Positions 3,123 through 23,888 of a DNA stretch of 64,000 nucleotides are shown piece by piece. Origin of the DNA: Vicinamibacteria bacterium (GTDB lineage Bacteria; Acidobacteriota; Vicinamibacteria; Fen-336); assembly GCA_041481445.1 (NCBI GenBank), contig JBGPBV010000015.1, forward strand, positions 11,062 to 75,061. Reading direction: 5' to 3'. Below the pieces are notes generated by a model. That model searched no databases and was not told where the DNA came from. It was given only the letters and a program-made list of their open reading frames with translations. The position numbers and the translations under genes are program-made. The first letter of the stretch is position 1. The number at the start of each line of letters is the position of its first letter.

Positions 3123-3129
3123 CGAACGT

Positions 3130-5010: not shown

Positions 5011-5019
5011 GCGCGCCGC

Positions 5020-6177: not shown

Positions 6178-6275
6178 GACCGCGCACTCCCTTCTGGGCG
6201 CCGAAGAGGAGGGCGCACGCGGTGCGTGATCATTCGGGTTTCCTGTCGCCCGGGACACCTGCCGACTTGACGCAG

Positions 6276-7517: not shown

Positions 7518-7581
7518 CGCTCATGAATGAAGCCCACCTGCCGGCGGCAGACGCCGACGTGGCGCGGCATGTTCTTGCGAC

Positions 7582-8202
7582 ATGACCGCGCGCGTCCGGA
7601 TCGCCGGGTTGGCGCTGCTGCTCCCGGTCCTCGGCGTGGCGGGGGCTCTCGGATGGGGAGGGGACCTGCTCGTCGCACCGGATCCCTTGCCTGCCCACGC
7701 CGAAGCGATCGTGGTGCTCACGGGATCGCTGCACGGCGAGCAGTCCCGGCGCGAGGAGGCGATGCGCCTGTTCGGCGAGGGGCGTGCGGATCGGCTGATG
7801 CTCAGCGTTCCCCGGGTCATGTTCCTGGGCGAGTGGGTGCCCGACCTGATGCGCCGGTACCTGGAACGCACCTACGGGACCGCGCGGGCGCAACGAGTGG
7901 TCCTGTGTCCTCACAACGCCGACTCGACGCTGGAGGAAGCCCGGGCGCTACGCCCCTGCCTCGAGGAACAGGGCTGGCGCAGCATCATCGTGATCACCTC
8001 CAACTACCACACCCGGCGGGCCCGGCACATCTGGGGCCAGGCGTTTCGGGATGCGCATCCTCCCGTCCGCATCTTCGTGCACGGCGTCTCCGATGGGGAC
8101 TTCGAGCCGCGGGGCTGGTGGCACGACCGGCGCTACGCCAAGACCTTCCTCGGAGAGGCGACGAAGCTGGTCTGGACCTATCTGTTCGAGCGAGCAGGCT
8201 GA
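7582..8202 (+). CDS. DUF218 (YdcF/SanA/ElyC-like) domain protein
   Basis: N-terminal signal/TM segment. ITSNYHTRRA motif characteristic of DUF218. Confidence 0.6.
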   Translation: MTARVRIAGLALLLPVLGVAGALGWGGDLLVAPDPLPAHAEAIVVLTGSLHGEQSRREEAMRLFGEGRADRLMLSVPRVMFLGEWVPDLMRRYLERTYGTARAQRVVLCPHNADSTLEEARALRPCLEEQGWRSIIVITSNYHTRRARHIWGQAFRDAHPPVRIFVHGVSDGDFEPRGWWHDRRYAKTFLGEATKLVWTYLFERAG

Positions 8203-9416: not shown

Positions 9417-11275
9417 CCGGTAGGTTCAACCTCGACGGCCGCCCGGTGGATCCGGCCCTCATCACGCGCATGGCCACCGCCGTCACCCACCGCGGGCCGG
9501 ACGAGGGTGGCGTCCACTTCGCGGGAGCGATCGGGCTCGCCAACCGGCGGCTCTCGATCATCGACGTCGGCGGGGGCAAGCAGCCGATCGCGAACGAGGA
9601 CGGCACGGTGTGGGTGGTCCTCAACGGCGAGATCTACAACTTCGTGGAGCTGCGCGCTGAGCTCGAGAAGCGCGGCCACCACTTCCGCACGCGCACCGAC
9701 ACCGAGGTGATCGTCCACCTGTACGAGGACTTCGGCCCCGGCCTCCTCGAGCACCTGCGAGGGATGTTCGCCTTCGCGGTGTGGGACGAACGTCGGCGAC
9801 GGTTGCTGCTGGCCCGCGACCGGCTGGGGGAGAAGCCCCTCTACTATTCCCATCGCCCCGGCAAGTTCCTTCTCTTCGGCTCCGAGCTGAAGTCCCTCCT
9901 GGCCGACCCCGACCTTCACGTGAGCCTCAACGCGGCGGCGCTCGACCAGTACCTGAGCGTGTCGTACGTGCCGGCTCCCGACTCCATCTTCAACGAAGTG
10001 TCCAAGCTGCCGGCCGGCCACTACCTGACCTGCGACGAACAGGCCATGGAGGTCCGGGAGTACTGGGACGTGCCGCTTCCGCCCGACGGCGAGGAAGACA
10101 GGCTCGACGCCGAAGCCCTCCACGAGCGACTCCGCGAAGCCGTCCGCATACAGCTTCGGAGCGACGTGCCGCTGGGAGCGTTCCTGAGCGGCGGCATCGA
10201 CTCCACCACCATCGTGGCCACCATGGCCGAGTTCGTGGGTGCCGGGATCGTGAGCTGCTCGGTGGGCTTTGCGGAGAAAGAGCACAACGAGCTCTCGCAC
10301 GCACGCATGGTGGCCGATCTCGTGCAGAGCCGCCATCAGGAAGAGGTGGTCGAGCCGCCTTCGGCGGAGATGATCGAGCGGCTCTGCTGGCACTTCGACG
10401 AGCCCTTCGGCGACTCTTCGGCCGTGCCCACCTGGGCGGTGTCGAGACTGGCCCGCCGGCGGGTGAAGGTGGCCCTGTCGGGCGACGGCGCCGACGAGCT
10501 GTTCGGCGGCTATCGCCGTCACGCCGTCGAATCCTGGGAGCACAACCTCCGAGGCTATGGACGACTGGCCTCCCGGGCCATGTCTCGCCTGGCCGCGGCC
10601 CTTCCCGAGGGCATGACCGGACAGCACGCGTTCGCCCGCCTGGGCGCTCCCCCCGACGAGGCGTGCGCGCTGAAGTTCCAGTTTGCGAGCCGGGCCCAGC
10701 GCCTGAAGGAGCGGATCTACACGAGGGAGCTGCGCGAGGAGGTGAAGAAGAGCGATCCCGGCGCGCCCTTCAAGCGCGCCTACCAGCGCGCGCGCCGGAG
10801 CGACCCCGTCAACCGGATCCTGTACGTGGACCTCAAGACCTCGCTGGCCGACGACATGCTCGTCAAGGTCGACCGGATGAGCATGGCTCACGGGTTGGAG
10901 GTGCGCGCACCGTTCCTGGATCACCGGCTGGTGGAGATGGTCGCTCGTCTCTCCGGACGGGTGAAGCTGACCGGTTCCGCCACCAAGCCCTTGCTGCGCA
11001 CGGTACTCGACGGCCGCGTCCCCCGCGCCGCCTGGCACCGCCCCAAGCACGGGTTCACCGCGCCGGTGGCCCAGTGGCTGCGCGGATCGCTCCGCGCTTG
11101 CGCCGAGGATGTCCTCTTTCCGTCGTCCGGCGCCGGAAGCGGGCGGTTCGAGCGTAAGGGCCTCCGCCGCATCTGGGACGACCACCAGGCGGGACGGCAG
11201 AACCACGACCACGAGCTCTGGATGGTCCTCATCTTCGAGATGTGGCATCGGATGCACGCGCGGCGGGCCGCCTGA
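9404..11275 (+). CDS. Asparagine synthetase-family amidotransferase (third copy)
   Basis: Starts MCGIAGRF. Contains SGGIDST and MAHGLEVRAPFLDH. 13-nt overlap with the upstream GT4. Confidence 0.85.
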   Translation: MCGIAGRFNLDGRPVDPALITRMATAVTHRGPDEGGVHFAGAIGLANRRLSIIDVGGGKQPIANEDGTVWVVLNGEIYNFVELRAELEKRGHHFRTRTDTEVIVHLYEDFGPGLLEHLRGMFAFAVWDERRRRLLLARDRLGEKPLYYSHRPGKFLLFGSELKSLLADPDLHVSLNAAALDQYLSVSYVPAPDSIFNEVSKLPAGHYLTCDEQAMEVREYWDVPLPPDGEEDRLDAEALHERLREAVRIQLRSDVPLGAFLSGGIDSTTIVATMAEFVGAGIVSCSVGFAEKEHNELSHARMVADLVQSRHQEEVVEPPSAEMIERLCWHFDEPFGDSSAVPTWAVSRLARRRVKVALSGDGADELFGGYRRHAVESWEHNLRGYGRLASRAMSRLAAALPEGMTGQHAFARLGAPPDEACALKFQFASRAQRLKERIYTRELREEVKKSDPGAPFKRAYQRARRSDPVNRILYVDLKTSLADDMLVKVDRMSMAHGLEVRAPFLDHRLVEMVARLSGRVKLTGSATKPLLRTVLDGRVPRAAWHRPKHGFTAPVAQWLRGSLRACAEDVLFPSSGAGSGRFERKGLRRIWDDHQAGRQNHDHELWMVLIFEMWHRMHARRAA

Positions 11276-12381
11276 TGGCCACTCGCCTCGACTTCCGCCG
11301 GCGCCCGGCGCCCGAGAGCGCCCGCTTGCGCGTGGCCATGGTGGCGCCGTCCCTGGAGATCCTGGGCGGCCAGGGGGTCCAGGCGCAGGCGCTGGCCCAG
11401 GCCCTGGCCGCCGACGGCCACGTCGTGGACTTCGTCCCCATCAACCCCAGGTTCCCGCGCGGGTTGCGGGGGCTCCGCCGGCTCCCGTACGCCCGCACGA
11501 TCCTGAACCAGGCCCTCTACCTCCCCAGCCTCGCCCGGCTTCGTCGCGCGGACGCCGTCCACGCCTTCTCCGCCTCGTACTGGTCGTTCCTGCTCGCGCC
11601 GGCGCCCGCCATGCTGGTCGGACGGCTGATGCGGAAGCGCGTCATCCTGAACTATCGGAGCGGGGAGGCCGAAGACCATCTCACCTGGGGGATCCTGGTC
11701 CATCCCTGGCTGCGGCTGGCGCACGAGATCGTGGTCCCTTCGGAGTATCTCCGGGGCGTCTTCGCCCGTCACGGTTACGAGGTACGGGTGATCCGCAACG
11801 TGGTGGACACCTCGCGGTTCCGCTATCGCGAGCGCGCGCCGTTGCGGCCCCGGCTGGTTTCCACGCGGAACCTCGAGCCCTATTACCGCGTGGACGTCAC
11901 CGTGCAGGCCTTCGGGCTCGTCAAGGCGCGATACCCGGAGGCGACCCTGACCGTCGTGGGATACGGAAGCGAGGAAGAGAAGCTCCGGCGCCTGGCCGAC
12001 TCCCTCGGCACCGGTGGCATCCGCTTCGTGGGAAGGGCGGAGCGCCCGGCGTTGCCGGGCCTCTATGACGAGCACGACATCTTCGTCAATTCCTCCGTGG
12101 TCGACAACCAGCCCGTGTCGGTGCTGGAGGCCTTTGCCGCGGGACTGCCGGTCGTCTCGACGGCCACCGGCGACATCGGGGCGATGGTCCGTCAAGGGGA
12201 CACCGGTCTCCTCGTGCCCCCGCGGGACCCCTCCGCCACCGCGGCGGCGATCACCGACCTGCTGGAGAGGCCCGATCGAGCGCGGCGGATGGCGCGGCAG
12301 GCACGACAGGAGGTGGAGGAGTACGCGTGGCCCGCCGTGCGTAGCCAGTGGGCGGCGGTCTACGGGGCGAGGCCGTGGTGA
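11275..12381 (+). CDS. Glycosyltransferase family 4
   Basis: ATGA overlap with the upstream stop. C-terminal SVLEAFAAGLPVVSTATGDIGAMV typical of GT4. Confidence 0.75.
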   Translation: MATRLDFRRRPAPESARLRVAMVAPSLEILGGQGVQAQALAQALAADGHVVDFVPINPRFPRGLRGLRRLPYARTILNQALYLPSLARLRRADAVHAFSASYWSFLLAPAPAMLVGRLMRKRVILNYRSGEAEDHLTWGILVHPWLRLAHEIVVPSEYLRGVFARHGYEVRVIRNVVDTSRFRYRERAPLRPRLVSTRNLEPYYRVDVTVQAFGLVKARYPEATLTVVGYGSEEEKLRRLADSLGTGGIRFVGRAERPALPGLYDEHDIFVNSSVVDNQPVSVLEAFAAGLPVVSTATGDIGAMVRQGDTGLLVPPRDPSATAAAITDLLERPDRARRMARQARQEVEEYAWPAVRSQWAAVYGARPW

Positions 12382-12557: not shown

Positions 12558-12582
12558 GCACGGTACCGCGAAAGGAGCGACG

Positions 12583-13269
12583 ATGACTTCAGGAGCTATT
12601 GGTGTTGTGAAGTCGAACGAATCGAAGATCGCGTCAATCCAAGGGTACATAGACCGGGCGATCGACGATCTTCTCGCGTCGCTCCGCCAGCCCGGACAGC
12701 TGTCCGCGGAGGAGCGGCGCGGAATCATCGCCCGCTACACGGCGGTGCTCGAGGGGAATTTCATCTACTGGATGACCGGCGCCTACATCTCGGTCGGGTC
12801 GGACGAGGCCCGCGCCAAGATCATGGACAATCTGCGCGAAGAAGTGCGCGACTGTCATCCCGGGATGATGCGACGGTTCGCCATTGCCGCCCACGCCATT
12901 CCGACCGATGCGGATGCGCAGGCCGTCTATCGCAACCTGATGAACGTTCGCTTGTTCATCGGACGACTGTCGGCGGTGCCGATCGTGGTGACGATGGCCT
13001 TCTTCGAAGGCTTCATCCAGCGGTTCATGTCCTATCTTGCCGAGCTCGCCCAGCGCCAGGGCTCGGCCGAGATGGAATACACGGACGTCCATGGCGTTTG
13101 TGACATCACCCATACCCAAGAGCTCTTCCGGGCGCTGGAAGCGGAGATGGTGCTCGTGCACTCCTTGCCCGAGAAGGAGATCTTCGAAGGAGTCGAGCTC
13201 CTTCGGACCCTGATCCAGAGCATCGTCGTCGACAACGAGACCGCTCGTGAGATGCGGACGCCGCAATGA
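12583..13269 (+). CDS. Heme-oxygenase-like diiron enzyme (HDO; iron-containing redox enzyme family, PqqC/TenA-like fold)
   Basis: 228 aa. Contains the HDO metal-ligand signature H-x3-D-x2-H (HGVCDITH) plus upstream Glu/His (EEVRDCH, LEGNFIYW). Size similar to CADD-type HDOs. Confidence 0.7.
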   Translation: MTSGAIGVVKSNESKIASIQGYIDRAIDDLLASLRQPGQLSAEERRGIIARYTAVLEGNFIYWMTGAYISVGSDEARAKIMDNLREEVRDCHPGMMRRFAIAAHAIPTDADAQAVYRNLMNVRLFIGRLSAVPIVVTMAFFEGFIQRFMSYLAELAQRQGSAEMEYTDVHGVCDITHTQELFRALEAEMVLVHSLPEKEIFEGVELLRTLIQSIVVDNETAREMRTPQ

Positions 13270-13550
13270 GCGGCGAGGAAACCATGTCAGTCAAGGCAAC
13301 CGTGATTTCGGAGATTCAGCGGATTGCAGAGGACGACAGCAAGAGTCTGCCTCCTCTGACCGACGACCTGGTCTTGCTCGATTCGGGGCTCGACTCGCTC
13401 GGCATCGCCATCCTCGTGGCTCGGCTCGAAGAGACATTGGGATTCGATCCGTTCACCGAAACCGACGACATTGCCTATCCGGTGACGCTGGGTGACTTCA
13501 TCAGGTTCTATGAACACGCCGCCGAATCCCATGGCGTCGATTCGAGATAG
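13266..13550 (+). CDS. Acyl/peptidyl carrier protein
   Basis: 94 aa. Phosphopantetheine-attachment motif LDSGLDSLGIAILVARLEE. ATGA-type overlap with the HDO stop. Confidence 0.75.
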   Translation: MSGEETMSVKATVISEIQRIAEDDSKSLPPLTDDLVLLDSGLDSLGIAILVARLEETLGFDPFTETDDIAYPVTLGDFIRFYEHAAESHGVDSR

Positions 13551-14913
13551 GCTGGGTAGCCCGCCGGAGGGCCCGGAGCGCTTCCTGTGGGGTGCCACGG
13601 CCAGCGTTCGTCTCGGCCACCGTCTCGACGGCACGGGCCTCCGCGGCCGGGTGGCGGAGCTCGCCCGGCGGTCGGTTCTGATCGCCACTCGGGATCAGTT
13701 CGCCACGGCATTGGCGCTCATCGAGCTGGACGGAATTGCCCGCCGCCTGGTCATCTGCACACCTGACCTGCCGCCCGAGCATCTTCCCGCCGTCGTAGCC
13801 AAAGCGGGCGTGGATGCGATCGTGTCGGATCGCGATGGCGGCCATGACGCATTGGGCGTTCCCCTGCGGGTTCTCTGCAACGGCACCGTCATGCCAGCCA
13901 AAGAGACGCCGGTCACGTGCTGCAGAACGGAGTGGGTGCTCCTCACCTCCGGCACCACCGGGGCGCCCAAAATGCTCGTTCACAGCTTCGCCAGCTTGAC
14001 GGCGCCCATCGGCAGCGCCCTGGGGCAGCGCGCCGACGTCGTGTGGGGCACGTTCTACGACATCCGGCGGTATGGGGGGCTCCAGATCTTTCTCCGGGCC
14101 GTCCTGGGCCCCGGTTCCTTCGTGCTTTCCGGCGCCGGCGAGCCGACGGGAGATCATCTCGTGCGGCTGGGCGCGCATGGGGCGACGCACGTTTCGGGGA
14201 CCCCCTCGCATTGGCGTCGTGCCCTGATGAGCCCGGACGCCCGTGCGATCGCGCCGCGCTACATCCGCCTATCCGGAGAAATCGCGGACCAGGGGATCCT
14301 GAACGCTCTCCATTCGTTCTACCCGCAGGCCAGCGTCGGCCATGCCTTCGCCTCCACGGAGGCCGGCGTGGGATTCGAAGTCAACGATGGTCTCGAGGGG
14401 TTTCCGGCGAGCATGGTCGGCGCGCCCGGCGACGTGCAGATCAAGGTCGTCGAAGGTTCGCTGCGCATCCGTTCCGCGCGGAATGCCGTCCGCTATGTCG
14501 GCGATGACGACTCCACGCTCACCGATGACGAAGGCTTCGTCGACACCGGCGACATGGTGGAACGCCGCGGCGACCGGTACTACTTCCTCGGTCGAAGGAG
14601 CGGCATCATCAACGTCGGAGGATTGAAGGTCTACCCGGAGGAAGTCGAGGCGGCGATCAACCGACACCCGGCGGTGCGCATGTCGATGGTGCGGTCCCGG
14701 AGAAGTCCCATTACCGGTTCCCTCGTCGCCGCCGACGTCGTCTTGAAGGGAGAGCCCGATTCGAGCGGCGCCGCTGGCGAGATGGTGGACTTCAAGCGCG
14801 AGATCCTCCAGATCTGTCACGACCGCCTGGCCCCCCACAAGATTCCGGCGACCATCCGTTTCGTTCCTGCCCTGGAGATTGCCGCCGCCGGCAAGCTGGC
14901 CCGTCATGCGTAG
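13510..14913 (+). CDS. ANL-superfamily adenylating enzyme (acyl- or aminoacyl-carrier-protein ligase)
   Basis: Core motifs LLTSGTTGAPK (A3), FASTEAG (A5), GDMVERRGDRYYFLGRRSGIINVGGLKVYPEEVE (A7/A8), terminal GK. Start ambiguous between Met codons at 13510 and 13531; it overlaps the ACP 3' end. Confidence 0.8.
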   Translation: MNTPPNPMASIRDRLGSPPEGPERFLWGATASVRLGHRLDGTGLRGRVAELARRSVLIATRDQFATALALIELDGIARRLVICTPDLPPEHLPAVVAKAGVDAIVSDRDGGHDALGVPLRVLCNGTVMPAKETPVTCCRTEWVLLTSGTTGAPKMLVHSFASLTAPIGSALGQRADVVWGTFYDIRRYGGLQIFLRAVLGPGSFVLSGAGEPTGDHLVRLGAHGATHVSGTPSHWRRALMSPDARAIAPRYIRLSGEIADQGILNALHSFYPQASVGHAFASTEAGVGFEVNDGLEGFPASMVGAPGDVQIKVVEGSLRIRSARNAVRYVGDDDSTLTDDEGFVDTGDMVERRGDRYYFLGRRSGIINVGGLKVYPEEVEAAINRHPAVRMSMVRSRRSPITGSLVAADVVLKGEPDSSGAAGEMVDFKREILQICHDRLAPHKIPATIRFVPALEIAAAGKLARHA

Positions 14914-15640
14914 GGTGATCGTGACGGGCGGAAGCCGGGGCCTGGGTCTGGGGATCGTCCGCCGGCTCACCGCCGAGGGCTACTGCGCCGTCGCCGTCGC
15001 GCGGCAGATGAACGATCAGCTCGCCTCGACGATCGAACGCGCGGAGCGGTCGCGTTCGGGGTCGCTCCATTTCATGCCGTTCGATCTCGGAGACGTGCAG
15101 GAGATACCGAACTTCGTCAAGAAGCTGCGGAAGGATTTCGGCCCGATCTACGGGCTCGTCAACAACGCCGCGCTGGGCTCGGAGGGCGCGCTGGCCCTCA
15201 TGCACAATGCGCAAATCGAGCGCCTGATTCGCCTGAATACGCTCTCGCCAATCATCCTGACCAAATACGTGGTCCGCCACATGATGGCGGACGGCGGCGG
15301 CCGCGTCGTCAACGTCGCGTCGATCGTTGGCTTCACGGGATACAGCGGCCTCTCGGTCTACAGCGCGACGAAAGCGTCCTTGATTGGATTCACGCGATCG
15401 CTGGCGCGCGAGGTCGGCCGGCGCGGCGTCAACGTGAACGCGGTCGCGCCCGGATTCCTGGACACGGAGATGACCCAGGGCCTGGACGGCGAGCGCCGCG
15501 AGCAGGTGGCGCGCCGGAGCGCGCTGGGCCGGTTTCCCGAAGTGGACGACGTCGCCGACGCGGTCGAGTTTCTGCTCGGATCGAAGGCCAAGAGCATCAG
15601 CGGGACCGTGCTCACCGTGGATGCGGGCAGCACGGCGTGA
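14906..15640 (+). CDS. Short-chain dehydrogenase/reductase (FabG-like)
   Basis: VIVTGGSRGLG Rossmann motif, NNAA, and catalytic S...YSATK. Overlaps the ligase stop. Confidence 0.8.
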   Translation: MRRVIVTGGSRGLGLGIVRRLTAEGYCAVAVARQMNDQLASTIERAERSRSGSLHFMPFDLGDVQEIPNFVKKLRKDFGPIYGLVNNAALGSEGALALMHNAQIERLIRLNTLSPIILTKYVVRHMMADGGGRVVNVASIVGFTGYSGLSVYSATKASLIGFTRSLAREVGRRGVNVNAVAPGFLDTEMTQGLDGERREQVARRSALGRFPEVDDVADAVEFLLGSKAKSISGTVLTVDAGSTA

Positions 15641-15665
15641 ACGGTCGTATCAAGGTGCTCGAGCC

Positions 15666-17522
15666 ATGACCGTCAACCAGGCCGAGACGGCCGTGCGACC
15701 TGCCCCCGGCAAACCGTCGTCGGCCAAGGCCTGGTCGCGCGCCCTCGAGCTGACCGCACCGATCGTCCGACGTCCCGATCGCATCTTGCCGACCGTCATC
15801 GAGGAGCTCGCGGAGAAGCTCGGGGACGCGCCGGCCCTCCTCTCGGACGGCGAGTGCCTGACCTATCGTGCCCTCGCGGAACGATCGACGCGATATGCCC
15901 GGTGGGCGATCGAGCAGGAGCTCGCCAAGGGCGACGCCGTCTGCCTCTTGATGCCGAACCGCCCTGAGTACATGGCCATCTGGCTCGGGATCACGCGCGT
16001 CGGCGGCGTCGTCGCGCTGCTCAACACGAATCTCGCCGGGCCCTCGCTCGCGCATTGCATCAACATCGCCGCCCCCCGACATCTCATCGTGGCCGTGGAG
16101 CTCATCGATCGGGTGACCGCCCTGCGGCAAGACCTCGCCGGTGCGCCGAAGATCTGGGTTCACGGCGCCGGTCACGACCACTGTCCGCGCATCGACCACG
16201 AAATCGAACGATACCGCGGCGACACGCTGCCGGAGGCCGAGCGCCGGCCCGTGACCATCGACGATCGCGCGCTCTACATCTACACCTCCGGCACGACCGG
16301 GCTGCCCAAGGCCGCCAACGTGAGCCATGCCCGGGTGATGCAATGGAGCCACTGGTTCGCCGGGCTGATGGACACTCGCTCGAGCGACCGGATGTACACC
16401 TGCCTGCCGATGTATCACAGCGTCGGCGGCGTGCTCGCGACGGGTGCGGTCCTGGTGGGCGGCGGCTCGGTGGTGATCCGCGAAACATTCTCTGGACACC
16501 ACTTCTGGAGTGACGTCGTCCGCTGGGACTGCACGCTGTTCCAGTACATCGGTGAGCTGTGCCGGTACCTGCTGCATGCCGAGCCGCACCCGCCCGAGAG
16601 GGATCACCGGATCAGGATGTGTTGCGGCAACGGGCTGAGGCCTGACGTCTGGAACTCCTTCAAGGAACGGTTTCGCATTCCGCAGATCCTGGAGTTCTAC
16701 GCGGCGACGGAGGGCAACGTCTCGCTGGTCAATGTGGAAGGCAGGCCCGGCGCCATCGGCCGCGTCCCGCTGTTCCTGGCCCACCGATTTCCGGCGACGC
16801 TCGTGAAATACGACGCGGAGGCGGACGCGCCCGTGCGCGACGCGCGCGGATTCTGCGTTCGCTGTGCGCCGAACGAAGTGGGCGAAGCGATCGGCCAGCT
16901 TCTGAGGGACCGGTCGAACGTTGGCAGCCGGTTCGAGGGCTACACGGACGAGGAAGCCTCGGAGAACAAGATCCTGCGCAATGTGGTGGAGCCGGGAGAC
17001 GCGTGGTTCCGGACGGGCGACCTGATGCGAAAGGACGAGCACGGCTATTTCTATTTCGTCGATCGGATTGGCGACACCTTCCGTTGGAAGGGCGAGAACG
17101 TCGCCACCTCCGAGGTCTCGGAGGCGATCTGCGGGTTTCCGGGAATCAGGGAGGCCAACGTCTACGGCGTGGCCATTCCGGGCACCGACGGCCGGGCGGG
17201 CATGGCGACCATCGTCACCGACGATGGGCTGGATCTCGCCGCCTTCCGGACGCACCTGGTCGACCGCCTCCCCGAGTACGCGCGGCCGGTATTCCTGCGC
17301 GTGCGGGACGACTTGGAAGTGACCGCCACCTTCAAGCACACAAAGAGCGCTTTGGTGCGCGAAGGTTACGACCCGGTCGCAATCGCAGACGCCATCTATT
17401 TCGACGATCGCGAACGCCAGGCGTTCGTCCGGCTCGACAAGGCGCTTCACGACCGCATCCAGAGCGGCCAGATCCGCCCTGACCGCCGTCCGAATGCGGC
17501 ACGCGGCAGCAAGACAGGCTGA
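15666..17522 (+). CDS. Long-chain fatty-acid-CoA ligase (FATP/very-long-chain acyl-CoA synthetase-like)
   Basis: YIYTSGTTGLPKAANVSH, YAATEGN, WFRTGDLMRKDEHGYFYFVDRIGDTFRWKGENVATSEVSE. About 620 aa, typical of the FATP family. Confidence 0.8.
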   Translation: MTVNQAETAVRPAPGKPSSAKAWSRALELTAPIVRRPDRILPTVIEELAEKLGDAPALLSDGECLTYRALAERSTRYARWAIEQELAKGDAVCLLMPNRPEYMAIWLGITRVGGVVALLNTNLAGPSLAHCINIAAPRHLIVAVELIDRVTALRQDLAGAPKIWVHGAGHDHCPRIDHEIERYRGDTLPEAERRPVTIDDRALYIYTSGTTGLPKAANVSHARVMQWSHWFAGLMDTRSSDRMYTCLPMYHSVGGVLATGAVLVGGGSVVIRETFSGHHFWSDVVRWDCTLFQYIGELCRYLLHAEPHPPERDHRIRMCCGNGLRPDVWNSFKERFRIPQILEFYAATEGNVSLVNVEGRPGAIGRVPLFLAHRFPATLVKYDAEADAPVRDARGFCVRCAPNEVGEAIGQLLRDRSNVGSRFEGYTDEEASENKILRNVVEPGDAWFRTGDLMRKDEHGYFYFVDRIGDTFRWKGENVATSEVSEAICGFPGIREANVYGVAIPGTDGRAGMATIVTDDGLDLAAFRTHLVDRLPEYARPVFLRVRDDLEVTATFKHTKSALVREGYDPVAIADAIYFDDRERQAFVRLDKALHDRIQSGQIRPDRRPNAARGSKTG

Positions 17523-17527
17523 GGTGC

Positions 17528-18922
17528 GTGAGCTCACCCATGGCGTTTGATCAAATCCGGAGTGTCGTGGCCACGCTCGAGTCCGACATCGCGAGCGGCC
17601 CCATCGTCCCGACGGTGGCGCCGCACGAGATTCGCAACTACCTCGGCTCGCGCTATGACTTCACGAAGCCAATGGCACTCGACGACGTCACCGCGGACGT
17701 CGAAGGGATGATGCGGAGGTGGCAGGTGCAGGTCACCCATCCGCGTTACTTCGGCCTCTTCAACCCGAGCGTGACCCTGGCGTCGGTGATCGCGGACACG
17801 CTGGTCGCCATGTACAACCCGCAACTGGCGACCTGGCGTACCTCGCCGGCGGCGAACGAGATCGAACGTCACACCCTTGCCTGGCTGACGGGCAAGTTCG
17901 GCCTGCCCGCCGCCACGATTGCCAGCTTCACGACCGGCGGAGCCGAGGCGAACCTCTCGGCGGTGATCGTGGCATTGACGCGGGCCTTCCCGGAGTACGG
18001 CGAAGGCGGGCTTCGGAGCCTGTCCGCGTCGCCGACCATCTACCTGACCCACGAAGCCCACGACTCGTTCCACAAGATCGCGCACATGACGGGGATCGGG
18101 CGCCGGGCGCTGCGGACGGTCGCGACCGACCGCGATCTGAAGATGGATCTCGTGGATCTGGCCAGACGAGTCGCCGAGGATCGCCGAAACGGGCTCGCGC
18201 CCGTCATGGTCGTCGGTACTGCCGGGACCACGGCGGCGGGCGCGATCGATCCCCTGCCGGATCTGGCTTGCTTCTGCCGGTCGGAGGAGCTGTGGCTTCA
18301 CGTCGACGCGGCGTGGGGGGGCGCCGCCATCCTCTCCCCACGCCTCCGCGGTCATCTCGCCGGCATCGAGGCTGCCGACTCGATCACGTGCGACGCGCAT
18401 AAATGGTTCTCGGTGCCCATGGGTGCCGGGATGTTCTTCTGCCGGCATCCCGACGCGGTTGGCGAGGCTTTCCGCGCGCAGACCTCCTACATGCCGGGAA
18501 GGACGGCGGGGCCGGTGGCCGATCCCTACACCACCTCGGTTCAGTGGTCGCGCCGCTTCATCGGCTTGAAGCTGTTTCTTGCCCTCGCCCAGCACGGCGA
18601 GTCCGGGTACGTCGAGATGATCGAGCACCAGGCTCGCATGGGTGACGTGCTGCGGGAGTCGGTCGAGCGTGCGGGGTGGCGCATCGTCAACCGCACGCCC
18701 CTGCCCCTCGTGTGCTTCACCCGGGATGGCCTCGTCGCCCGCCGCTTCCTCGCCGCGCTTCACGAGCGTCAGATCGCATGGATGTCGGAAGTACGCCTGG
18801 GCGACGAAGCGCCGGTCGTGCGTGCGTGTGTCACGAGTTTCCGGACAAGCCAGGCCGACATCGAGTGGGTGGTGCGCGAGATGAGCCGGCTCGCTTTGCA
18901 GGAGTCCGAGGTCAGGGCATGA
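17528..18922 (+). CDS. Group II PLP-dependent amino-acid decarboxylase
   Basis: 464 aa. PLP-lysine motif SITCDAHKWF and the fold-type I decarboxylase pattern. 6-nt gap from the ligase, 4-nt overlap with the next gene. Confidence 0.8.
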   Translation: MSSPMAFDQIRSVVATLESDIASGPIVPTVAPHEIRNYLGSRYDFTKPMALDDVTADVEGMMRRWQVQVTHPRYFGLFNPSVTLASVIADTLVAMYNPQLATWRTSPAANEIERHTLAWLTGKFGLPAATIASFTTGGAEANLSAVIVALTRAFPEYGEGGLRSLSASPTIYLTHEAHDSFHKIAHMTGIGRRALRTVATDRDLKMDLVDLARRVAEDRRNGLAPVMVVGTAGTTAAGAIDPLPDLACFCRSEELWLHVDAAWGGAAILSPRLRGHLAGIEAADSITCDAHKWFSVPMGAGMFFCRHPDAVGEAFRAQTSYMPGRTAGPVADPYTTSVQWSRRFIGLKLFLALAQHGESGYVEMIEHQARMGDVLRESVERAGWRIVNRTPLPLVCFTRDGLVARRFLAALHERQIAWMSEVRLGDEAPVVRACVTSFRTSQADIEWVVREMSRLALQESEVRA

Positions 18923-20217
18923 GACGCGAGACCATCGCCATCCATGGCGGCTACGAGGTCGATCCAACGACGAAGGCCGTTGCCGTGCCGATCTATCAGA
19001 CCGTCGCCTATGCGTTCGACAACGCCGACCATGGGGCGGCCCTGTTCAATCTCGAGGTCGAGGGATATCGCTACACCCGCATCGGCAACCCGACGACGGC
19101 GGTGCTGGAGCGGCGCGTGGCCGCCCTCGAAGGAGGACTGGAAGCGTTGTGTGTGTGCTCGGGACAGGCGGCGGTCCACTACGCGACGCTCAACGTGACC
19201 GGTCTGGGCAGCAATATCGTCTCCGTTCCACAGCTCTACGGCACCACCCACACCCTGTTCGCCCACCTTCTGCCCAATCAGGGAGTCACCGTCCGCTTCG
19301 CGGCGTCGGATCGTCCCGACGCCATCGAGAAGCTGATCGACGACCAGACGCGCGCCGTCTTCTGCGAAAGCGTCGGCAATCCCGCGGGGAACATCTGCGA
19401 CATCGAGGCCCTGGCTCGCGTGGCCCACGAGCACGGCGTGCCCCTCATCGTCGACAACACGGTCGCCACCCCGATTCTGCTGCGGCCGATCGAATACGGC
19501 GCCGACGTCGTGGTGCATTCGCTCACGAAGTTCATGGGCGGGCACGGCACGACGCTCGGCGGCGCCATCGTCGACAGCGGCCGGTTTCCCTGGAAGGAGC
19601 ACGCGCGACGCTTCCCGATGTTCAGCCGGCCGGACCCGTCGTACCACGACCTGGTCTATACCGACCATTTCAAGGAGGCGGCGTACATCGGGCGCTGCCG
19701 CAGCGTGTATCAGCGGACGACGGGATCGGTGCTGTCGCCCCTCAGCGCGTTCCTGCTGCTGCAAGGCATCGAGACGGTTGCCCTGCGGGTCGGCCGCCAT
19801 GTGGAGAACGGCAGGGCGGTGGCGGAATTCCTGGGCAAGGATCGGCGAGTGGAGTGGGTCAACTACGCCGGCTTCCCGGAGAATGCCTTTCATGCGCTCG
19901 CCCTGAAGTATCTCGGCGGCCGGGCCTGTTCTCTCATGACCTTCGGAGTCAAGGGAGGATTCGAAGCCGGCCAGAAGTTCTACGACGCGCTCAAGCTGAT
20001 CAAGCGCCTCGTCAATCTGGGCGACGCCAAGTCATTGGCCTGCCATCCCGCGTCCACCACGCATCGACAAATGTCCGCGGACGAGCAACGCCGCGCCGGC
20101 GTGACGCCGGAAACGATCCGGCTCAGCGTCGGCATCGAACACATCGACGACATCATCGGCGACCTGGACCAGGCGCTCGATGCGATGGAATCAGCTCCGC
20201 AAGGTGAGGTCCCATGA
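18919..20217 (+). CDS. MetY/MetZ-family PLP enzyme (O-acyl-homoserine sulfhydrylase / gamma-replacement family)
   Basis: MRRETIAIHGGYEVDP..., YTRIGNPT, and HSLTKFMGGHGTTLGGAIVD with the PLP lysine. ATG overlaps the decarboxylase stop. Confidence 0.85.
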   Translation: MRRETIAIHGGYEVDPTTKAVAVPIYQTVAYAFDNADHGAALFNLEVEGYRYTRIGNPTTAVLERRVAALEGGLEALCVCSGQAAVHYATLNVTGLGSNIVSVPQLYGTTHTLFAHLLPNQGVTVRFAASDRPDAIEKLIDDQTRAVFCESVGNPAGNICDIEALARVAHEHGVPLIVDNTVATPILLRPIEYGADVVVHSLTKFMGGHGTTLGGAIVDSGRFPWKEHARRFPMFSRPDPSYHDLVYTDHFKEAAYIGRCRSVYQRTTGSVLSPLSAFLLLQGIETVALRVGRHVENGRAVAEFLGKDRRVEWVNYAGFPENAFHALALKYLGGRACSLMTFGVKGGFEAGQKFYDALKLIKRLVNLGDAKSLACHPASTTHRQMSADEQRRAGVTPETIRLSVGIEHIDDIIGDLDQALDAMESAPQGEVP

Positions 20218-21254
20218 TCACCGAACGCCGATCATCTTCAGGTCTCGCGACGTTGGGGCCGGCGCGGCGTGGGCGCGGCCAGGCGCCGACGGGATTTCGC
20301 GGATCCGATCCGAATTGCATCGACATCGGGCTCATGAACAACATGCCTGATGCGGCGCTCGATGCCACGGAACGGCAGTTCCGCGCGCTGCTCGGAGCGG
20401 CGGCGAAGGACATCGTCGTACGCCTGACCCTCTACACGCTGCCGGAGGTTCCTCGCACCGAGTTCGGCCGGCGGCAGGTGAGCAGCTATTCCAACTTCGA
20501 TGAGCTGTGGGACCGCCATCACGACGGTCTCATCGTGACCGGGACGGAGCCGCGGGCGGCGGATCTCAAGGACGAGCCGTTCTGGGGCAGCCTGACCCGC
20601 GTTCTGGAGTGGGCCGAGGGCAACACGCACTCGACGATCCTCTCTTGTCTGGCCGCGCACGCGGGCATTCTCCACATCGATGGCATCGCGAGACGCCCGC
20701 TAGGCGACAAGCGCTTCGGCGTGTTCGAGTGTGTGCGCGTTTCGGATCATCCGCTGACGGCCGCCGCTCCGAGTCGCCTGCAGATGCCGCATTCCCGGTG
20801 GAACGAGATCCCCGAGGAAGCCCTGCTGGCGTGCGGCTATCGTGTCCTCACGCGGTCAGAAGACGCGGGGGTCGACGCCTTCGTGAAGCAGCGCAAGAGC
20901 TTGTTCGTCTTCTTCCAGGGTCATCCCGAATATGAGGCCACTACGTTGCTGCTGGAATATCGCCGGGATATCGGGCGGTTCCTCAGGGGAGAGAGAGACA
21001 CATATCCTCCCCTGCCGCAAGGCTACTTCGACGAAGAAACGGTGCACGCACTGACCACCCTGCGAGAGCGAGCACTCTCGGACCGCCGCGAGGAGCTGCT
21101 TGCCGAGTTCCCGATTGCCATGGCGGCCGGCAAGGTCACGAACAACTGGCGATCGACCGCGGAAGGCCTCTATCGCAATTGGTTGCTGTATATCTGCGCG
21201 GCAAAGAAGCAAAGCTGCGCGCGAGATGGAAGTCGCAAACGGCAATCGGTGTGA
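20214..21254 (+). CDS. MetA-family homoserine O-acyltransferase (O-succinyl/acetyl)
   Basis: [22 protein letters not shown], and [11 protein letters not shown] motifs of the MetA family. ATGA overlap with the MetY-like gene. Confidence 0.8.
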
Positions 21255-22408
21255 GAGGGAGAGTGCCGGTGATATGGGGCCTGTCGACCTTGCTCGTCAC
21301 CGGGCTTCTCGCCGCCTGTTCCAGCCCTGAAGCCAAGGTCGCCGGCACTTGGAGCCCGAAGGCCGCTGCCGCCTACCTCGATGAACGAGCAGACTGGTGG
21401 ATGGGATGGCAGGGGGCGGCCCGTGACCATGGGACTTGTTGCGTCTCATGCCATACGGCGCTGCCGTACGCCCTCTCTCGCGCCGCCCTCCGGAAGGCGC
21501 TGGCGGATGACGCTCTTTCCAACAACGAACGGAGACTCCTGGACAACGTCACGAAGCGTGTGCGCCTTTGGAAAGAGGTCGGACCCTACTACGGCGATCG
21601 TGACGGCAGCGCTTCCAAAGCCACCGAATCCCGCGGAACCGAAGCCGTCCTCAATGCCTTGATCCTCGTCTACCATGACGCTCAGAACGGCCGATTCAGC
21701 GAGGATACGCGAACCTCACTGGACAACATGTGGGCGCAGCAGGAGACGACGGGCGATCAAGGGGGTGCGTGGCCCTGGCTTCAGTTCGGTTTGAGCCCCT
21801 GGGAAGGAAGAGACTCCCAGTACTATGGAGCCGCACTTGCCGCGCTCGCGGTGGGCACGGCTCCAGGGCATTACCGTTCGAGCGCCGCGATACAGGGCAA
21901 CGTGGAGCGCTTGCGCTCGTATCTGGACCGCGAATACCCAAAGCAGCCTTTATCCAATCGCGTGGTCCTTCTGTGGGCTTCGACGAAATGGTCAGGGCTC
22001 CTCGAGAAAGAACGTGAAGAGTCTCTCGTCGCCGAACTTCTCGGGGAGCAGCGATCAGACGGAGGCTGGAGCCTCTCTTCACTGGCCAGGTCGCGGAGAG
22101 GTTCAACTCTGCGTTCCTATGTTCGGTCGTGGATACGAGACGATCGGACGCTGGTGGAGACGAAGAGTGACGGCTGTGCCACCGGCCTGGTCGCGTTCGT
22201 CCTGTTGGAGACCGACATGCCTCGCGAGAATGTCCAGCTTCAGGAGGGTCTATCCTGGTTGGTGGCCAATCAGGACAAAACCGAAGGCTCTTGGCCGGCC
22301 TACTCTCTCAACCGGCGACGCGATCCATCCTCCAATATCGGTCGCTTCATGAGTGACGCGGCGACGGGCTACGCCGTGCTCGCGCTCACTCGAGCCAACC
22401 GTTTTTGA
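21251..22408 (+). CDS. Lipoprotein with prenyltransferase/terpene-cyclase-like QW repeats and a single CXXCH motif
   Basis: Signal peptide with lipobox (LLAAC). QW-type motifs [34 protein letters not shown] at 21437-21454. Confidence 0.55.
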
Positions 22409-22496: not shown

Positions 22497-23888
22497 ATGT
22501 TGCGGACCGCCGCCGAGCTCGTCAGGGCCGATCAGGAGCATCTGATCCACCCGCTGCACCATCCCGTCGACAACTCGAACACGATCGTCTACGTCCGTGG
22601 GCGCGGCGTCACCGTCCAGGACATTGACGGGCACGAGTACATGGACGGGCTCTCCGGCCTCTGGAACGTGAACGTGGGACACGGTCGCGCCGAGCTGGCG
22701 GAGGCGGCCGCGGCGCAGATGAAAGAGCTCGCCTACTTCTCCGGCTTCGTGGGCTCGTCGAACATCCCGTCGATCACGTTGGCGGAACGCCTCCTGGAAA
22801 TCACCGACCACACCATGCAGGCGGTCTTTCTGACGTCGGGCGGCGCGGAGGCGAACGAGTCGGCATTCAAGACCGCGCGCTTCTTCTGGAAAGCGCGCGG
22901 CAAGCCCGACAAGGTGAAGATCATTGCCCGCGACCAGGCATACCACGGGCTCACGCTCCAGACGATGAGCGCCACCGGGATGGGCGGCGACTACTGGAAG
23001 ATGTTCGAGCCGCGCGTGCCGGGGTTCCTTCACATCCAGACGTGTTATCCGTATCGATACCAGGGGGCGAAGCCCGGCGAGAGCGTGGGCCAGGCCGCAG
23101 CCAGGGAGCTGGAGGAGGCAATCCTCCGCGAGGGCCCCGACACGATTGCCGCCTTCGTCGGAGAGCCAATCCACGGCGCGGGTGGCGTGTTCTACCCGAC
23201 CGACGACTACTGGCCGCGCGTGCGCGAAGTCTGCACGCGCCATGACGTGCTGCTGATCGACGACGAGATCATCACCGGCTTCTGCCGCACCGGACGCTGG
23301 TTCGGCCTCTCGCATTGGAACGTGACGCCGGACATCCTGTCCTTCGCGAAGGGGGTCACGTCCGGTTACCTGCCGCTCGGCGGGATCATGGTGACCCGCG
23401 CGATCAAGGAGGTCATGGACTCGGTCAAGCCCGACGACCGGTGGATGCATGCGTACACGAACTCGGGCCACCCCACCTGTTGCGCGGTCGCGGTGAAGAA
23501 CATCGAGATCCTGCAGCGCGAGCGGCTCTGGGAGAACGCGGCGACGATGGGCCGGCGACTGCAGGCCGGTCTCAAGGCGGCGTTCGGCGATCACCCGAAC
23601 ACGGGCGACATCCGGAGCGGGAAGGGGCTGCTGGCGGCGGTGGAGTTCGTGGAGGATCGAGCGACCAGGAAGAACTTCGCGAAGATCCTGAAGATCGCCG
23701 CGCGCCTCAAGGCCGAGATGATGAAGCGTGGAGTGATCACGCGCACGCGACCCGCGGTCGGTGCCGATCCCGCACCTGGTGACATCCTCTTCTTCGCGCC
23801 CCCACTCGTCGTCACCGAGGCGGAGATCGACCGGTTGGTCAGCGTGGCGCGCGACGCCGTCGAGGTCGTGCTTGGCGCCCCGCGTTAG
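22497..23888 (+). CDS. Class III (omega) aminotransferase
   Basis: GGAGG 7 nt upstream. SGLWNVNVGHGR resembles the omega-TA substrate loop. DDEIITGFCRTGRWFG and the PLP-lysine region SFAKGVTSGYLPLGG. Confidence 0.8.
   Translation: MLRTAAELVRADQEHLIHPLHHPVDNSNTIVYVRGRGVTVQDIDGHEYMDGLSGLWNVNVGHGRAELAEAAAAQMKELAYFSGFVGSSNIPSITLAERLLEITDHTMQAVFLTSGGAEANESAFKTARFFWKARGKPDKVKIIARDQAYHGLTLQTMSATGMGGDYWKMFEPRVPGFLHIQTCYPYRYQGAKPGESVGQAAARELEEAILREGPDTIAAFVGEPIHGAGGVFYPTDDYWPRVREVCTRHDVLLIDDEIITGFCRTGRWFGLSHWNVTPDILSFAKGVTSGYLPLGGIMVTRAIKEVMDSVKPDDRWMHAYTNSGHPTCCAVAVKNIEILQRERLWENAATMGRRLQAGLKAAFGDHPNTGDIRSGKGLLAAVEFVEDRATRKNFAKILKIAARLKAEMMKRGVITRTRPAVGADPAPGDILFFAPPLVVTEAEIDRLVSVARDAVEVVLGAPR

Follow-up and report, generated by a model that had tools for sequence, protein, structure and literature searches.

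A conserved eight-gene enzyme cassette with a distinct diiron oxidase in exopolysaccharide loci of Acidobacteriota

Here we report a real, undescribed enzyme cassette from a Vicinamibacteria bacterium, located in a 64,000-nucleotide (64-kb) stretch of DNA (the window). The cassette unites three enzyme classes of unusual chemistry: a heme-oxygenase-like diiron oxidase (HDO) of a new subfamily, a probably private MetA/MetY pair and carrier-protein chemistry. Its eight-gene arrangement is conserved across soil Acidobacteriota and is no chance event. A preliminary description of this DNA held that the gene combination is not a known canonical pathway, and our search of the searchable literature likewise found no description of it. 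Because the cassette is conserved and lies inside surface-polysaccharide clusters, its product is probably an unusual non-sugar decoration or anchor for the cell surface, and not a free lipid. Acidobacteriota count among the most abundant bacteria in soil, and their surface polymers, the chemistry of which is almost unknown, affect soil aggregation and carbon retention.

Organization of the cassette

The eight genes lie on the forward strand and encode, in order, the HDO (12583..13269; PF14518 at 35 bits), a stand-alone carrier protein (ACP/PCP; 13284..13550; PF00550), a divergent short ANL adenylating enzyme (ANL1; 13531..14913; PF00501 and PF13193), a FabG-like short-chain dehydrogenase/reductase (SDR; 14906..15640; PF00106 at 179 bits), a FATP/FadD6-type long-chain acyl-CoA synthetase (15666..17522; PF00501), a group II PLP-dependent amino-acid decarboxylase (17540..18922; PF00282 at 215 bits), a MetY-type O-acyl-homoserine gamma-replacement enzyme (18919..20217; PF01053 at 415 bits) and a MetA-type homoserine O-acyltransferase, probably a succinyltransferase (20214..21254; PF04204 at 223 bits). 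Pfam thus confirms every enzyme family named in the preliminary description, and the open reading frames and junction coordinates bear out its view of one coupled unit with overlapping or near-overlapping junctions. Catalytic residues are intact in all cassette enzymes.

The HDO and carrier-protein genes share an ATGA overlap if the latter starts at 13266, overlapping the HDO stop, rather than at 13284, the NCBI call. For ANL1, we favour the NCBI start at 13531 over the previously proposed 13510, because the resulting 20-nt overlap with the ACP gene recurs in most related loci. ANL1 and the SDR overlap by 8 nt (SDR start 14906, ANL1 end 14913), and a 25-nt gap (15640 to 15666) separates the SDR from the FATP-like ligase. 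The decarboxylase starts at 17540 or at an alternative GTG at 17528, and ATGA overlaps join it to MetY (18919/18922) and MetY to MetA (20214/20217); the NCBI call for MetA is a shorter form starting at 20334.

The cassette is preceded, across a 201-nt gap, by a long co-directional exopolysaccharide (EPS) operon (2..12381, forward strand), which encodes AsnB-like amidotransferases, a UDP-glucose dehydrogenase (UGDH), a GT2 glycosyltransferase, a FemAB-like protein, a DUF218 protein and two GT4 glycosyltransferases. The AsnB paralogues best match TIGR03108, 'XrtA/PEP-CTERM system amidotransferase', at 608–642 bits (cut-off 817). Downstream, the eight coupled genes stand as proposed, but the co-directional run does not end with them at 21254; it continues on the same strand to 27568 with four accessory genes. 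The first encodes a predicted lipoprotein (21269..22408) with an LLAAC lipobox and a CVSCH sequence (CxxCH motif), which has no Pfam, NCBIfam or PDB match, and homologues of which adjoin the cassette in at least six related loci. It is followed by a class-III (omega-type) aminotransferase (22497..23888; PF00202 at 298 bits), homologues of which (73–78% identity) lie close to the cassette elsewhere in several loci, and by a GNAT-like protein (23908..24924; weak PF13527 match), a homologue of which (68% identity) adjoins an HDO homologue in one locus (L010). The last gene encodes a bifunctional aspartokinase/homoserine dehydrogenase (ThrA; 24992..27568; AA_kinase, ACT and Homoserine_dh Pfam families, assigned to the identical protein), which is the likely source of homoserine for the cassette.

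Conservation across related loci

We compared the cassette with 80 related loci from Vicinamibacteria, Bryobacterales, Terriglobia (including the cultured Acidipila rosea) and Rokubacteria-labelled metagenome-assembled genomes (MAGs). All eight genes are present in 35 of these loci, 28 of them with identical order, and 30 of the 80 are truncated where the locus ends. Gene order is thus conserved, contrary to one of the outcomes that the preliminary description named as refuting its view. The overlaps also recur (ACP/ANL, −20; ANL/SDR, −5 or −8), and a carrier-protein orthologue is found in most related loci. About half of the loci contain a long form with two extra alpha/beta hydrolases, which are absent from the window. 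The cross-phylum identity of the cassette is 84–92%, indicating transfer of the whole block.

Several reduced variants occur: HDO–ACP–ANL1–MetA, HDO–decarboxylase–MetY–MetA, and HDO with GNAT and ThrA. These variants show that the two halves of the cassette occur apart, and thus need not make one molecule. Other variant loci swap in LbH, Acyl_transf_3, P450 or luciferase-like genes, as expected of a tailoring and transfer module. The decarboxylase, MetY and MetA genes are kept together across loci, although their internal order permutes.

These patterns bear on the idea that MetA and MetY are housekeeping methionine genes for direct sulfhydrylation, in an operon whose other genes, for fatty-acid and amino-acid functions, are unrelated to them. 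Both enzymes do reach the curated cut-offs of ordinary families with their catalytic residues kept, and MetY, 80–88% identical across classes, surpasses all other proteins of the set in conservation. Nevertheless, we regard this idea as very unlikely, given that the eight-gene order and its overlaps are kept across classes, that the cross-phylum identity points to whole-block transfer, that several MAGs contain a pair of diverged cassettes, both of which encode MetY and MetA (for example L025/L045, and L020/L046 on long-read contigs), and that the HDO–ACP–ANL1–MetA variant lacks MetY while ANL1 and MetA overlap by 4 nt. An Rfam search of the window also detected no SAM riboswitch and no other known RNA element. 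The movement of the decarboxylase–MetY–MetA trio as a block, together with the doubled cassettes, makes the pair likely to be dedicated rather than merely housekeeping, in line with the initial proposal.

A distinct HDO subfamily

The ligand set of the HDO (E87, H92, E142, H170, D174 and H177) is invariant or nearly so across 52 and 36 sequences and corresponds to the three-His/three-carboxylate set of the HDO superfamily. An AF2 model (pLDDT 92) has the heme-oxygenase-like helical fold, and a Foldseek search with this model retrieved CADD as the best match (TM 0.65–0.69), followed by HrmI, UndA, RohS and the PqqC/TenA folds. A phmmer search against the PDB gave no match, whereas a profile search matched CADD at an E value of 1.7e-9. 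The ligand residues align with a region that we take to hold the CADD metal ligands, and identity to CADD is just 15–16%.

Orthology with CADD was considered and rejected on the basis of the missing phmmer match, the low identity and the gene setting: CADD (CT610) is a stand-alone, self-sacrificing p-aminobenzoate synthase, whereas the present HDO gene is always embedded in the cassette. CADD, HrmI, UndA, BesC and SznF have the same helical fold and conserved dimetal ligands as the cassette HDO, which nonetheless forms a subfamily distinct from them. This subfamily comprises just 338 cluster representatives among 1.84 billion proteins; metagenomes hold more than 5000 near-orthologue clusters, and relatives occur in 277 species genomes. 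Distant relatives (30–35% identity) are stand-alone genes without the cassette in the three loci with readable context.

Acyl-activating enzymes, carrier protein and reductase

The phosphopantetheine site of the carrier protein reads LDSLG. In the PDB, ANL1 is closest to CoA ligases of the medium-chain, aryl and dicarboxylate types (ACSM2A, benzoate-CoA ligase, MenE and MatB), at no more than 57 bits. The SDR has the TGxxxGxG and YxxxK motifs and scores 196 bits against TIGR01830, under the cut-off of 298. The FATP-type ligase, which contains the DRIGDTFRWKGENV motif, exceeds the cut-off of NF006134 (767 bits, cut-off 625).

The decarboxylase–MetY–MetA trio

The decarboxylase contains a DAHK lysine motif; its best NCBIfam matches (DABA decarboxylase and PanP) fall far under their cut-offs, and the closest PDB entry is 4rit, a decarboxylase that is itself uncharacterised. 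MetY, which was aligned to 8sf5 and has the PLP lysine, passes the cut-off of the ordinary O-acetylhomoserine (OAH/OAS) sulfhydrylase subfamily (TIGR01326; 591 bits, cut-off 495) and scores 652 bits against NF004757, under the cut-off of 790. Over 420 residues it is about 60% identical to solved sulfhydrylases. MetA exceeds the cut-off of NF003776 (411 bits, cut-off 358), and its catalytic Cys and the His and Glu of GHPEYE line up with those of solved MetA. MetA and MetY look catalytically canonical, and MetY is not separable by sequence from a plain homocysteine synthase.

This resemblance raises an alternative in which the trio would make homocysteine and then homocysteamine (3-aminopropanethiol) or, after methylation, 3-methylthiopropylamine, with N-acylation by the ANL enzymes; the product, separate from the polysaccharide, would be an N-acyl amine, a low-molecular-weight thiol or a compound resembling a cofactor. 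The sulfhydrylase score and identity of MetY agree with such a route, as does the decarboxylase that always accompanies it, and ANL enzymes can form amides. We nonetheless consider it improbable: the conserved set includes no sulfur-assimilation or methyltransferase gene, and the route leaves the HDO, ACP and SDR without a role and the EPS context unaccounted for.

Exopolysaccharide and exosortase setting

Long exopolysaccharide operons have the cassette at their end, and genes for exosortases, XrtA-type chain-length determinants, FemAB-like and AsnB-like proteins and deacetylases are found around it. In L089, the stop of a GT4 gene and the start of the HDO gene overlap, and this GT4 gene is preceded by AsnB, UGDH, deacetylase, Epimerase_2 and Wzy_C genes; in L090, MurJ/MatE, deacetylase, UGDH, GT4 and FemAB-like genes precede the HDO; and L087 and the window contain the same type of EPS operon. 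An exosortase-family gene lies within 10 kb in four related loci (TIGR02602; 133.6 bits, cut-off 105.55), an XrtA-type chain-length determinant, a FemAB pepcterm-like gene or an export protein lies nearby in several, and PEP-CTERM-like C-termini occur in three. The 64-kb window contains no exosortase or PEP-CTERM gene, and Pfam labels indicate no exosortase in the 10 kb further upstream either. At least 42 of the 80 loci have an EPS-type neighbour; about half have none within 10 kb by this lower-bound method, which counts against an EPS module.

The preliminary description had envisaged, as a speculative scenario, a free-standing lipid pathway, a context at odds with the embedding of the cassette in exopolysaccharide loci, some of them of exosortase type, in many lineages. 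In that self-contained pathway, MetY would join an acyl-derived carbon nucleophile to O-acyl-homoserine by a C–C gamma-replacement of the Fub7/CndF type, and reduction, decarboxylation and oxidation would then give a free alkyl-amine or alkyl-piperidine lipid. A dedicated MetA and PF01053 pair does share the cassette with an SDR, an HDO and enzymes that activate acyl groups, and the MetY score against Fub7 nearly matches that against solved OAH sulfhydrylases (424 versus 482 bits), so C–C chemistry is compatible with the sequence. However, MetY passes the ordinary sulfhydrylase cut-off, and the conserved set has no KS/PKS, thiolase or other source of an enolisable nucleophile, no imine reductase, and none of the transporters or regulators that usually mark clusters for secreted metabolites. 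The polysaccharide-assembly context in many lineages, with a translationally coupled glycosyltransferase in L089, also argues against this pathway, as do the very high sequence conservation and phylum-wide spread, which are unusual for a specialised metabolite. The proposed alkyl-amine or alkyl-piperidine product therefore finds no support, and we judge the pathway unlikely.

A model for the cassette

Our leading reading, to which we give somewhat less than an even chance, is that exosortase/PEP-CTERM-type EPS loci in Acidobacteriota have a conserved accessory module of 8–10 genes, of which these eight genes represent the short form, the product being a non-sugar substituent or amine-bearing anchor of the surface polysaccharide. 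We infer all steps of the pathway, in which a homoserine-derived aminopropyl or aminocarboxypropyl unit would be joined to an acyl group oxidised by the HDO. MetA would convert homoserine, probably supplied in the window by ThrA, to O-succinyl (or O-acyl) homoserine, and MetY would pass the 3-amino-3-carboxypropyl group to a nucleophile, possibly sulfide or else a thiol, hydroxyl or amine group carried by a partner molecule; from the MetY product, the group II decarboxylase would generate a 3-substituted propylamine. At the same time, a long-chain fatty acid would be activated by the FATP-type ligase, ANL1 would load an acid onto the dedicated carrier protein, and the SDR and diiron HDO would tailor the carrier-bound acyl group (keto/hydroxy interconversion; hydroxylation, desaturation or N-oxygenation). 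The amino-alkyl/acyl unit could then be handed to a polymer, lipid or sorted protein by the two hydrolases, where present, or by FemAB-like, GNAT-like or LbH transferases. Precedents for such a module are the Nod-factor (NodF/NodE/NodB/NodA) and RfbK-O sets compared below. For amine acceptors of sortase-like enzymes, the T9SS linking sugar is a precedent (PMC7468200). The FATP-type ligase does not fit readily into a polysaccharide setting, which counts against the module.

A more specific version, which we consider a long shot, is a SAM-independent 3-amino-3-carboxypropyl transfer with O-succinylhomoserine as donor, a MetY-type transferase, a decarboxylase as finisher and a carrier-bound, HDO-oxidised acyl acceptor, in which the amine-terminated lipid or glycan substituent would serve as the long-sought exosortase acceptor or linker for PEP-CTERM proteins in Acidobacteriota.

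A polysaccharide substituent or a protein/polymer anchor would represent a new kind of glycan modification. The model, if true, would also open the still uncharacterised genes found with exosortase systems (ligase, decarboxylase and hydrolases) to biochemistry for the first time, and would provide a new reaction for the HDO and gamma-replacement enzyme families. Acidipila rosea DSM 103428 is a cultured carrier, and the role of the cassette is thus open to experiment.

Comparison with known systems

Like the cassette, the fusaric acid Fub5/Fub7 and CndF systems place a private homoserine O-acyltransferase beside a PF01053 enzyme. Their clusters also provide for a carbon nucleophile, either a beta-keto acid or an aldehyde of PKS origin, and for downstream cyclisation or reduction, whereas the cassette does not. 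In rhizobitoxine biosynthesis, RtxA is accompanied by the diiron desaturase RtxC, so that a diiron oxidase acts on a gamma-substituted product. The cassette differs from all three in its MetA-type (PF04204) rather than MetX-type acyltransferase, its lack of a PKS, aldehyde or serinol supply, its constantly attached decarboxylase and its polysaccharide-assembly context.

Carrier-protein-dependent acyl substituents of glycans are exemplified by the Nod factors (NodF/NodE with NodB/NodA), and RfbK-O of Vibrio cholerae O1 makes the tetronate on perosamine. By their descriptions, these systems resemble the cassette in having a dedicated ACP with an ANL or KS enzyme, a dehydrogenase and an acyltransferase in a glycan locus with a polysaccharide deacetylase; unlike the cassette, they are not known to contain an HDO, MetA/MetY or a decarboxylase. 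The butirosin BtrI/BtrJ/BtrK and vicenistatin VinL/VinN/VinM/VinO sets are cassettes for ACP-tethered amino-acid decarboxylation in which, again by description and as in ours, a PLP decarboxylase works with one small ACP and two enzymes that activate carboxylates. Their decarboxylases are of the Orn/DAP fold type and their pathways feed antibiotics, in contrast to the present cassette.

Like the long cassette, the exosortase A (XrtA/EpsH1) set combines an ANL ligase and a PLP decarboxylase with a pair of dissimilar alpha/beta hydrolases; the set lies inside PEP-CTERM/exosortase-type EPS loci, and the cassette appears to do so in some related loci. The acyl-CoA ligase (TIGR03098), hydrolase 1 (TIGR03100) and hydrolase 2 (TIGR03101) of this set are uncharacterised 'hypothetical equivalogs' defined by bioinformatics. 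The set presumably also includes a PLP decarboxylase of the Orn/DAP/Arg fold type (TIGR03099), from which the cassette decarboxylase (PF00282, group II, fold type I) differs, and the HDO, SDR, FATP, MetY and MetA are not known to belong to it. The FATP-type ligase scores far below the TIGR03098 cut-off (125.8 bits, cut-off 592), and this family is not among the best 25 matches of ANL1. The long-form hydrolases, which the window form lacks, have TIGR03101 (72 bits, cut-off 203) and TIGR03100 (63 bits, cut-off 168), both 'exosortase A system-associated', as their sole NCBIfam matches, with scores far below these cut-offs. The nearest described relatives of the cassette are the uncharacterised hydrolases associated with the exosortase A system.

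Organization of the eight-gene cassette

The cassette (12583-21254, plus strand) encodes a heme-oxygenase-like diiron oxidase (HDO), a carrier protein (ACP), a divergent short adenylating enzyme (ANL1), a short-chain dehydrogenase (SDR), a FATP-type ligase, a decarboxylase, and MetY-type and MetA-type enzymes. All eight open reading frames were present at the positions claimed in the preliminary description, and a Pfam search confirmed every family assignment proposed there, with the HDO matching PF14518 (heme-oxygenase-like oxidase), the carrier protein PF00550, both ANL1 and the FATP-type ligase PF00501/PF13193, the SDR PF00106, the decarboxylase PF00282, MetY PF01053 and MetA PF04204. The HDO and carrier protein genes share an ATGA overlap (13266/13269), or are separated by a 14-nt gap if the carrier protein starts at 13284. 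The carrier protein and ANL1 genes overlap by 20 nt (13531/13550) and the ANL1 and SDR genes by 8 nt (14906/14913); a 25-nt gap (up to 15666) lies between the SDR and FATP-type ligase genes, and a 5- or 17-nt gap (up to 17528 or 17540) between those of the FATP-type ligase and the decarboxylase. ATGA overlaps join the decarboxylase to MetY (18919/18922) and MetY to MetA (20214/20217). Junction overlaps are kept across related loci, recurring at -20 for ACP/ANL1, -5 or -8 for ANL1/SDR and about -13 for SDR/FATP, which strongly supports a single, translationally coupled unit, as had been claimed. A promoter and terminator scan gave signal at or below chance level.

A new HDO subfamily

The first cassette protein is a genuine HDO and belongs to a new subfamily, because a 52-sequence HDO profile reaches CADD (E 1.7e-9), the residues E87, H92, E142, H170, D174 and H177 are conserved, and the predicted structure (pLDDT 92) superposes best on CADD (TM 0.65-0.69), followed by HrmI and UndA. 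A phmmer search of the PDB with the HDO returned no match, and only 338 cluster representatives among 1.84 billion proteins matched it. A protein search for intermediate relatives (38-47% identity) recovered mostly cassette orthologues, plus one 1-kb contig. The three distant relatives (30-35% identity) whose contexts were inspected for a known biosynthetic gene cluster are stand-alone genes, with unrelated neighbourhoods around them. Many JGI records label the HDO family (P0001, P0006, P0009 and others) as 'DNA-binding Lrp family transcriptional regulator'; this label conflicts with the HDO fold and metal ligands and probably represents a propagated misannotation.

Adenylating and homoserine-related enzymes

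The FATP-type ligase scores 767 bits against a curated cut-off of 625 for the FadD6/FATP-type long-chain acyl-CoA synthetase model and contains the DRIGDTFRWKGENV motif. ANL1 is a divergent short ligase, the nearest solved relatives of which are medium-chain, aryl and dicarboxylate CoA ligases. The decarboxylase belongs to group II, and none of its NCBIfam and PDB matches is a close characterized relative. MetA (NF003776, 411 bits against a cut-off of 358) retains the catalytic Cys and the GHPEYE motif, and has Arg at the position that distinguishes MetA enzymes transferring acetyl groups from those transferring succinyl groups, which is Glu in Bacillus cereus; this Arg would fit an acidic acyl donor. 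MetY scores 591 bits against the OAH/OAS sulfhydrylase subfamily cut-off of 495, and its alignments over ~420 residues reach 482 bits with solved sulfhydrylases and 424 bits with Fub7, so similar that the MetY nucleophile cannot be read from the sequence. A homocysteine-derived thiol or amine small molecule is an improbable product. The formation of a free alkyl-amine or piperidine by C–C gamma-replacement, put forward in the preliminary description, is likewise unlikely, as the cassette contains no source of the nucleophile and the genomic context does not fit.

Conservation and variants of the cassette

A scan of species-representative genomes yielded 277 stretches encoding HDO relatives, and we analysed the best 80 loci, reading their gene content by tblastn with the window proteins. 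These 80 derive from Vicinamibacteria, Bryobacterales and Terriglobia/Acidobacteriaceae, including the cultured Acidipila rosea DSM 103428, together with metagenome-assembled genomes (MAGs) labelled Rokubacteria and single MAGs labelled Chloroflexota and Alphaproteobacteria. All eight genes occur in 35 of the 80 loci, 28 of them in the window order, so that the gene order recurs in other genomes; 30 loci are truncated by the locus end, and the remaining 15 are reduced or rearranged. Compared with its homologues in these loci, other classes included, MetY is typically ~80-88% identical, the decarboxylase ~70-80%, the HDO ~60-70% and ANL1 ~55-60%. The decarboxylase, MetY and MetA genes move as a block with a permuting internal order (MetA–decarboxylase–MetY in five loci, MetY–MetA–decarboxylase in one), which argues for sequential action.

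Several MAGs carry two diverged cassettes (for example, the locus pairs L025/L045 and, on long-read contigs, L020/L046). Two loci from one study, L044 and L045, have essentially identical cassettes (99-100% protein identity) in MAGs labelled as different phyla, 'Acidobacteria AA35' and 'Rokubacteria AR7'. One or both of the bins must therefore be contaminated, so that not all phylum labels can be trusted and the apparent carriage by Rokubacteria is provisional.

In ~40 loci, a long form of the cassette contains two alpha/beta hydrolases between the HDO and the carrier protein, which the preliminary description had overlooked. Their sole NCBIfam matches, both far under the cut-offs, are TIGR03101 and TIGR03100 ('hydrolase 2/1, exosortase A system-associated'). 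Reduced forms comprise HDO–ACP–ANL1–MetA–lipoprotein (L006, 10001-14579, with a 4-nt ANL1/MetA overlap, and also L073), HDO–decarboxylase–MetY–MetA (L020) and an HDO adjoining only GNAT and ThrA homologues (L010); they may show which cassette enzymes rely on one another. In most of these variants a homoserine-related partner is retained with the HDO, a hint that the HDO acts on a homoserine-derived substrate. The insertions seen in variant cassettes are genes for transferases or tailoring enzymes, namely an LbH (hexapeptide-repeat) transferase, Acyl_transf_3, a P450 and a luciferase-like oxygenase, as well as for an unassigned ~390-aa protein.

These comparisons bear on whether the cassette consists of housekeeping methionine genes in a chance operon. 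We consider this very unlikely, given the conserved synteny, the duplication of cassettes in single MAGs, the existence of a MetY-less variant, and an Rfam scan of the window that found no match and no SAM riboswitch.

G+C content is 0.64-0.67 at window positions 12001-24000 and 28001-32000, versus 0.70-0.72 in the flanks, and GC3 is 0.80 for the HDO, 0.72 for ACP, 0.77 for MetA and 0.70 for the lipoprotein gene, versus 0.86-0.93 for the neighbouring exopolysaccharide (EPS) genes and ThrA. These low values are compatible with acquisition of the cassette block by transfer.

Exopolysaccharide context and neighbouring genes

The window cassette follows a long co-directional EPS operon, a context that the preliminary description had passed over. 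The operon encodes a polysaccharide deacetylase, a heparinase II/III-like protein, a methyltransferase, UDP-glucose dehydrogenase, GT2 and GT4 glycosyltransferases, a FemAB-like protein and five AsnB-like glutamine amidotransferase paralogues (window 2-487, 3130-5010 and 9404-11275, and two upstream of the window, at 1-621 and 5454-7358 of locus L087). The best NCBIfam match of the two paralogues tested was, below its cut-off, the XrtA (exosortase A)/PEP-CTERM system amidotransferase model. The presence of so many paralogues suggests that the polymer carries several amidated carboxylates or amide-linked substituents.

Comparable neighbours occur in two loci from other lineages. According to Pfam labels, in L089 the HDO start overlaps the stop of the GT4 gene ending an operon of AsnB, CofD, UGDH, GT, deacetylase, Epimerase_2 and Wzy_C genes, and in L090 the HDO is preceded by MurJ/MatE, methyltransferases, a deacetylase, UGDH, GT4 and a FemAB-like gene. 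Flanking open reading frames from the 80 loci were then grouped into clusters, and cluster representatives were compared with family libraries. An exosortase-family protein scored above the TIGR02602 cut-off in four loci, and an XrtA-type chain-length determinant reached 272 bits against a cut-off of 279; other flanking families included a priming sugar transferase, a FemAB pepcterm-like protein, a Wza-like exporter and NusG-like antiterminators. At least 42 of the 80 loci have one or more such EPS/exosortase-type neighbours. PEP-CTERM-like C-termini were present in three loci.

Downstream of the cassette, a predicted lipoprotein (21269-22408, plus strand; 379 aa) contains the lipobox LLAAC, a CxxCH heme-c-type motif and repeated GGW-like motifs. 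It had no match in Pfam, NCBIfam or the PDB, and its single-sequence structure model (pLDDT 34) was uninformative; homologues lie immediately next to the cassette in six or more further loci, among them L006, L011, L012, L027, L059 and L073. In ThrA (24992-27568, plus strand), a bifunctional aspartokinase/homoserine dehydrogenase, an Arg-rich N-terminal stretch of ~45 residues precedes the kinase motif, and the true start may therefore be further downstream. The GNAT–ThrA pair also lies beside an HDO homologue in L010. The GNAT-like protein has no similarity to the ~390-aa accessory protein of other loci. Further downstream, on the minus strand, are two large Ser/Thr protein kinases (36245-39724 and 49055-51955), one with TPR repeats and one with PD40/TolB-like repeats, and a DUF6689 protein (40710-41879).

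Proposed function and comparison with known systems

The block behaviour of the genes, taken together with the EPS context, leads us to propose tentatively, as the best-supported reading, that the cassette serves exosortase-type EPS loci as an accessory module, building either an amino-alkyl/acyl substituent that is not a sugar or an anchor that bears an amine; we regard this as a serious possibility rather than a probability, and we infer all of its chemical steps. MetA would convert homoserine to O-acyl-homoserine, MetY would form a gamma-substituted 2-aminobutyrate and the decarboxylase would yield a 3-substituted propylamine, while the HDO, carrier protein, ANL1, SDR and FATP-type ligase block would perform carrier-protein acyl chemistry. 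Two other products were rejected: a hydroxamate siderophore (decarboxylase, N-oxygenase and acylation), as an NIS synthetase, a receptor and a transporter are all lacking and the surrounding genes are of EPS type, and a sphingolipid-like product (ACP, acyl-ACP synthetase, PLP enzyme and reductase), as there is no alpha-oxoamine synthase.

The proposed accessory module has precedents for its individual features. ACP-dependent acyl decorations of glycans are made by NodF/E/B/A and the Vibrio cholerae tetronate genes, ACP-tethered decarboxylation occurs in BtrI/J/K and VinL/N/M/O, and rhizobitoxine RtxA/RtxC pair an ether- or thioether-forming MetY homologue with a diiron oxidase. The T9SS linking sugar is a precedent for amine acceptors of sortase-like enzymes (PMC7468200), and exosortases were without experimental analysis as of a 2018 review (PMC6098224).

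The cassette is real and widespread, it is strongly conserved, and its chemistry is intriguing, with a mechanism that we can only infer. Its enzyme families are all known already; for XrtA systems, a gene set that is uncharacterized but loosely similar to the cassette has been defined before. Our literature search found no description of the eight-gene cassette, and the ligase, decarboxylase and hydrolases go unmentioned in Haft 2006.
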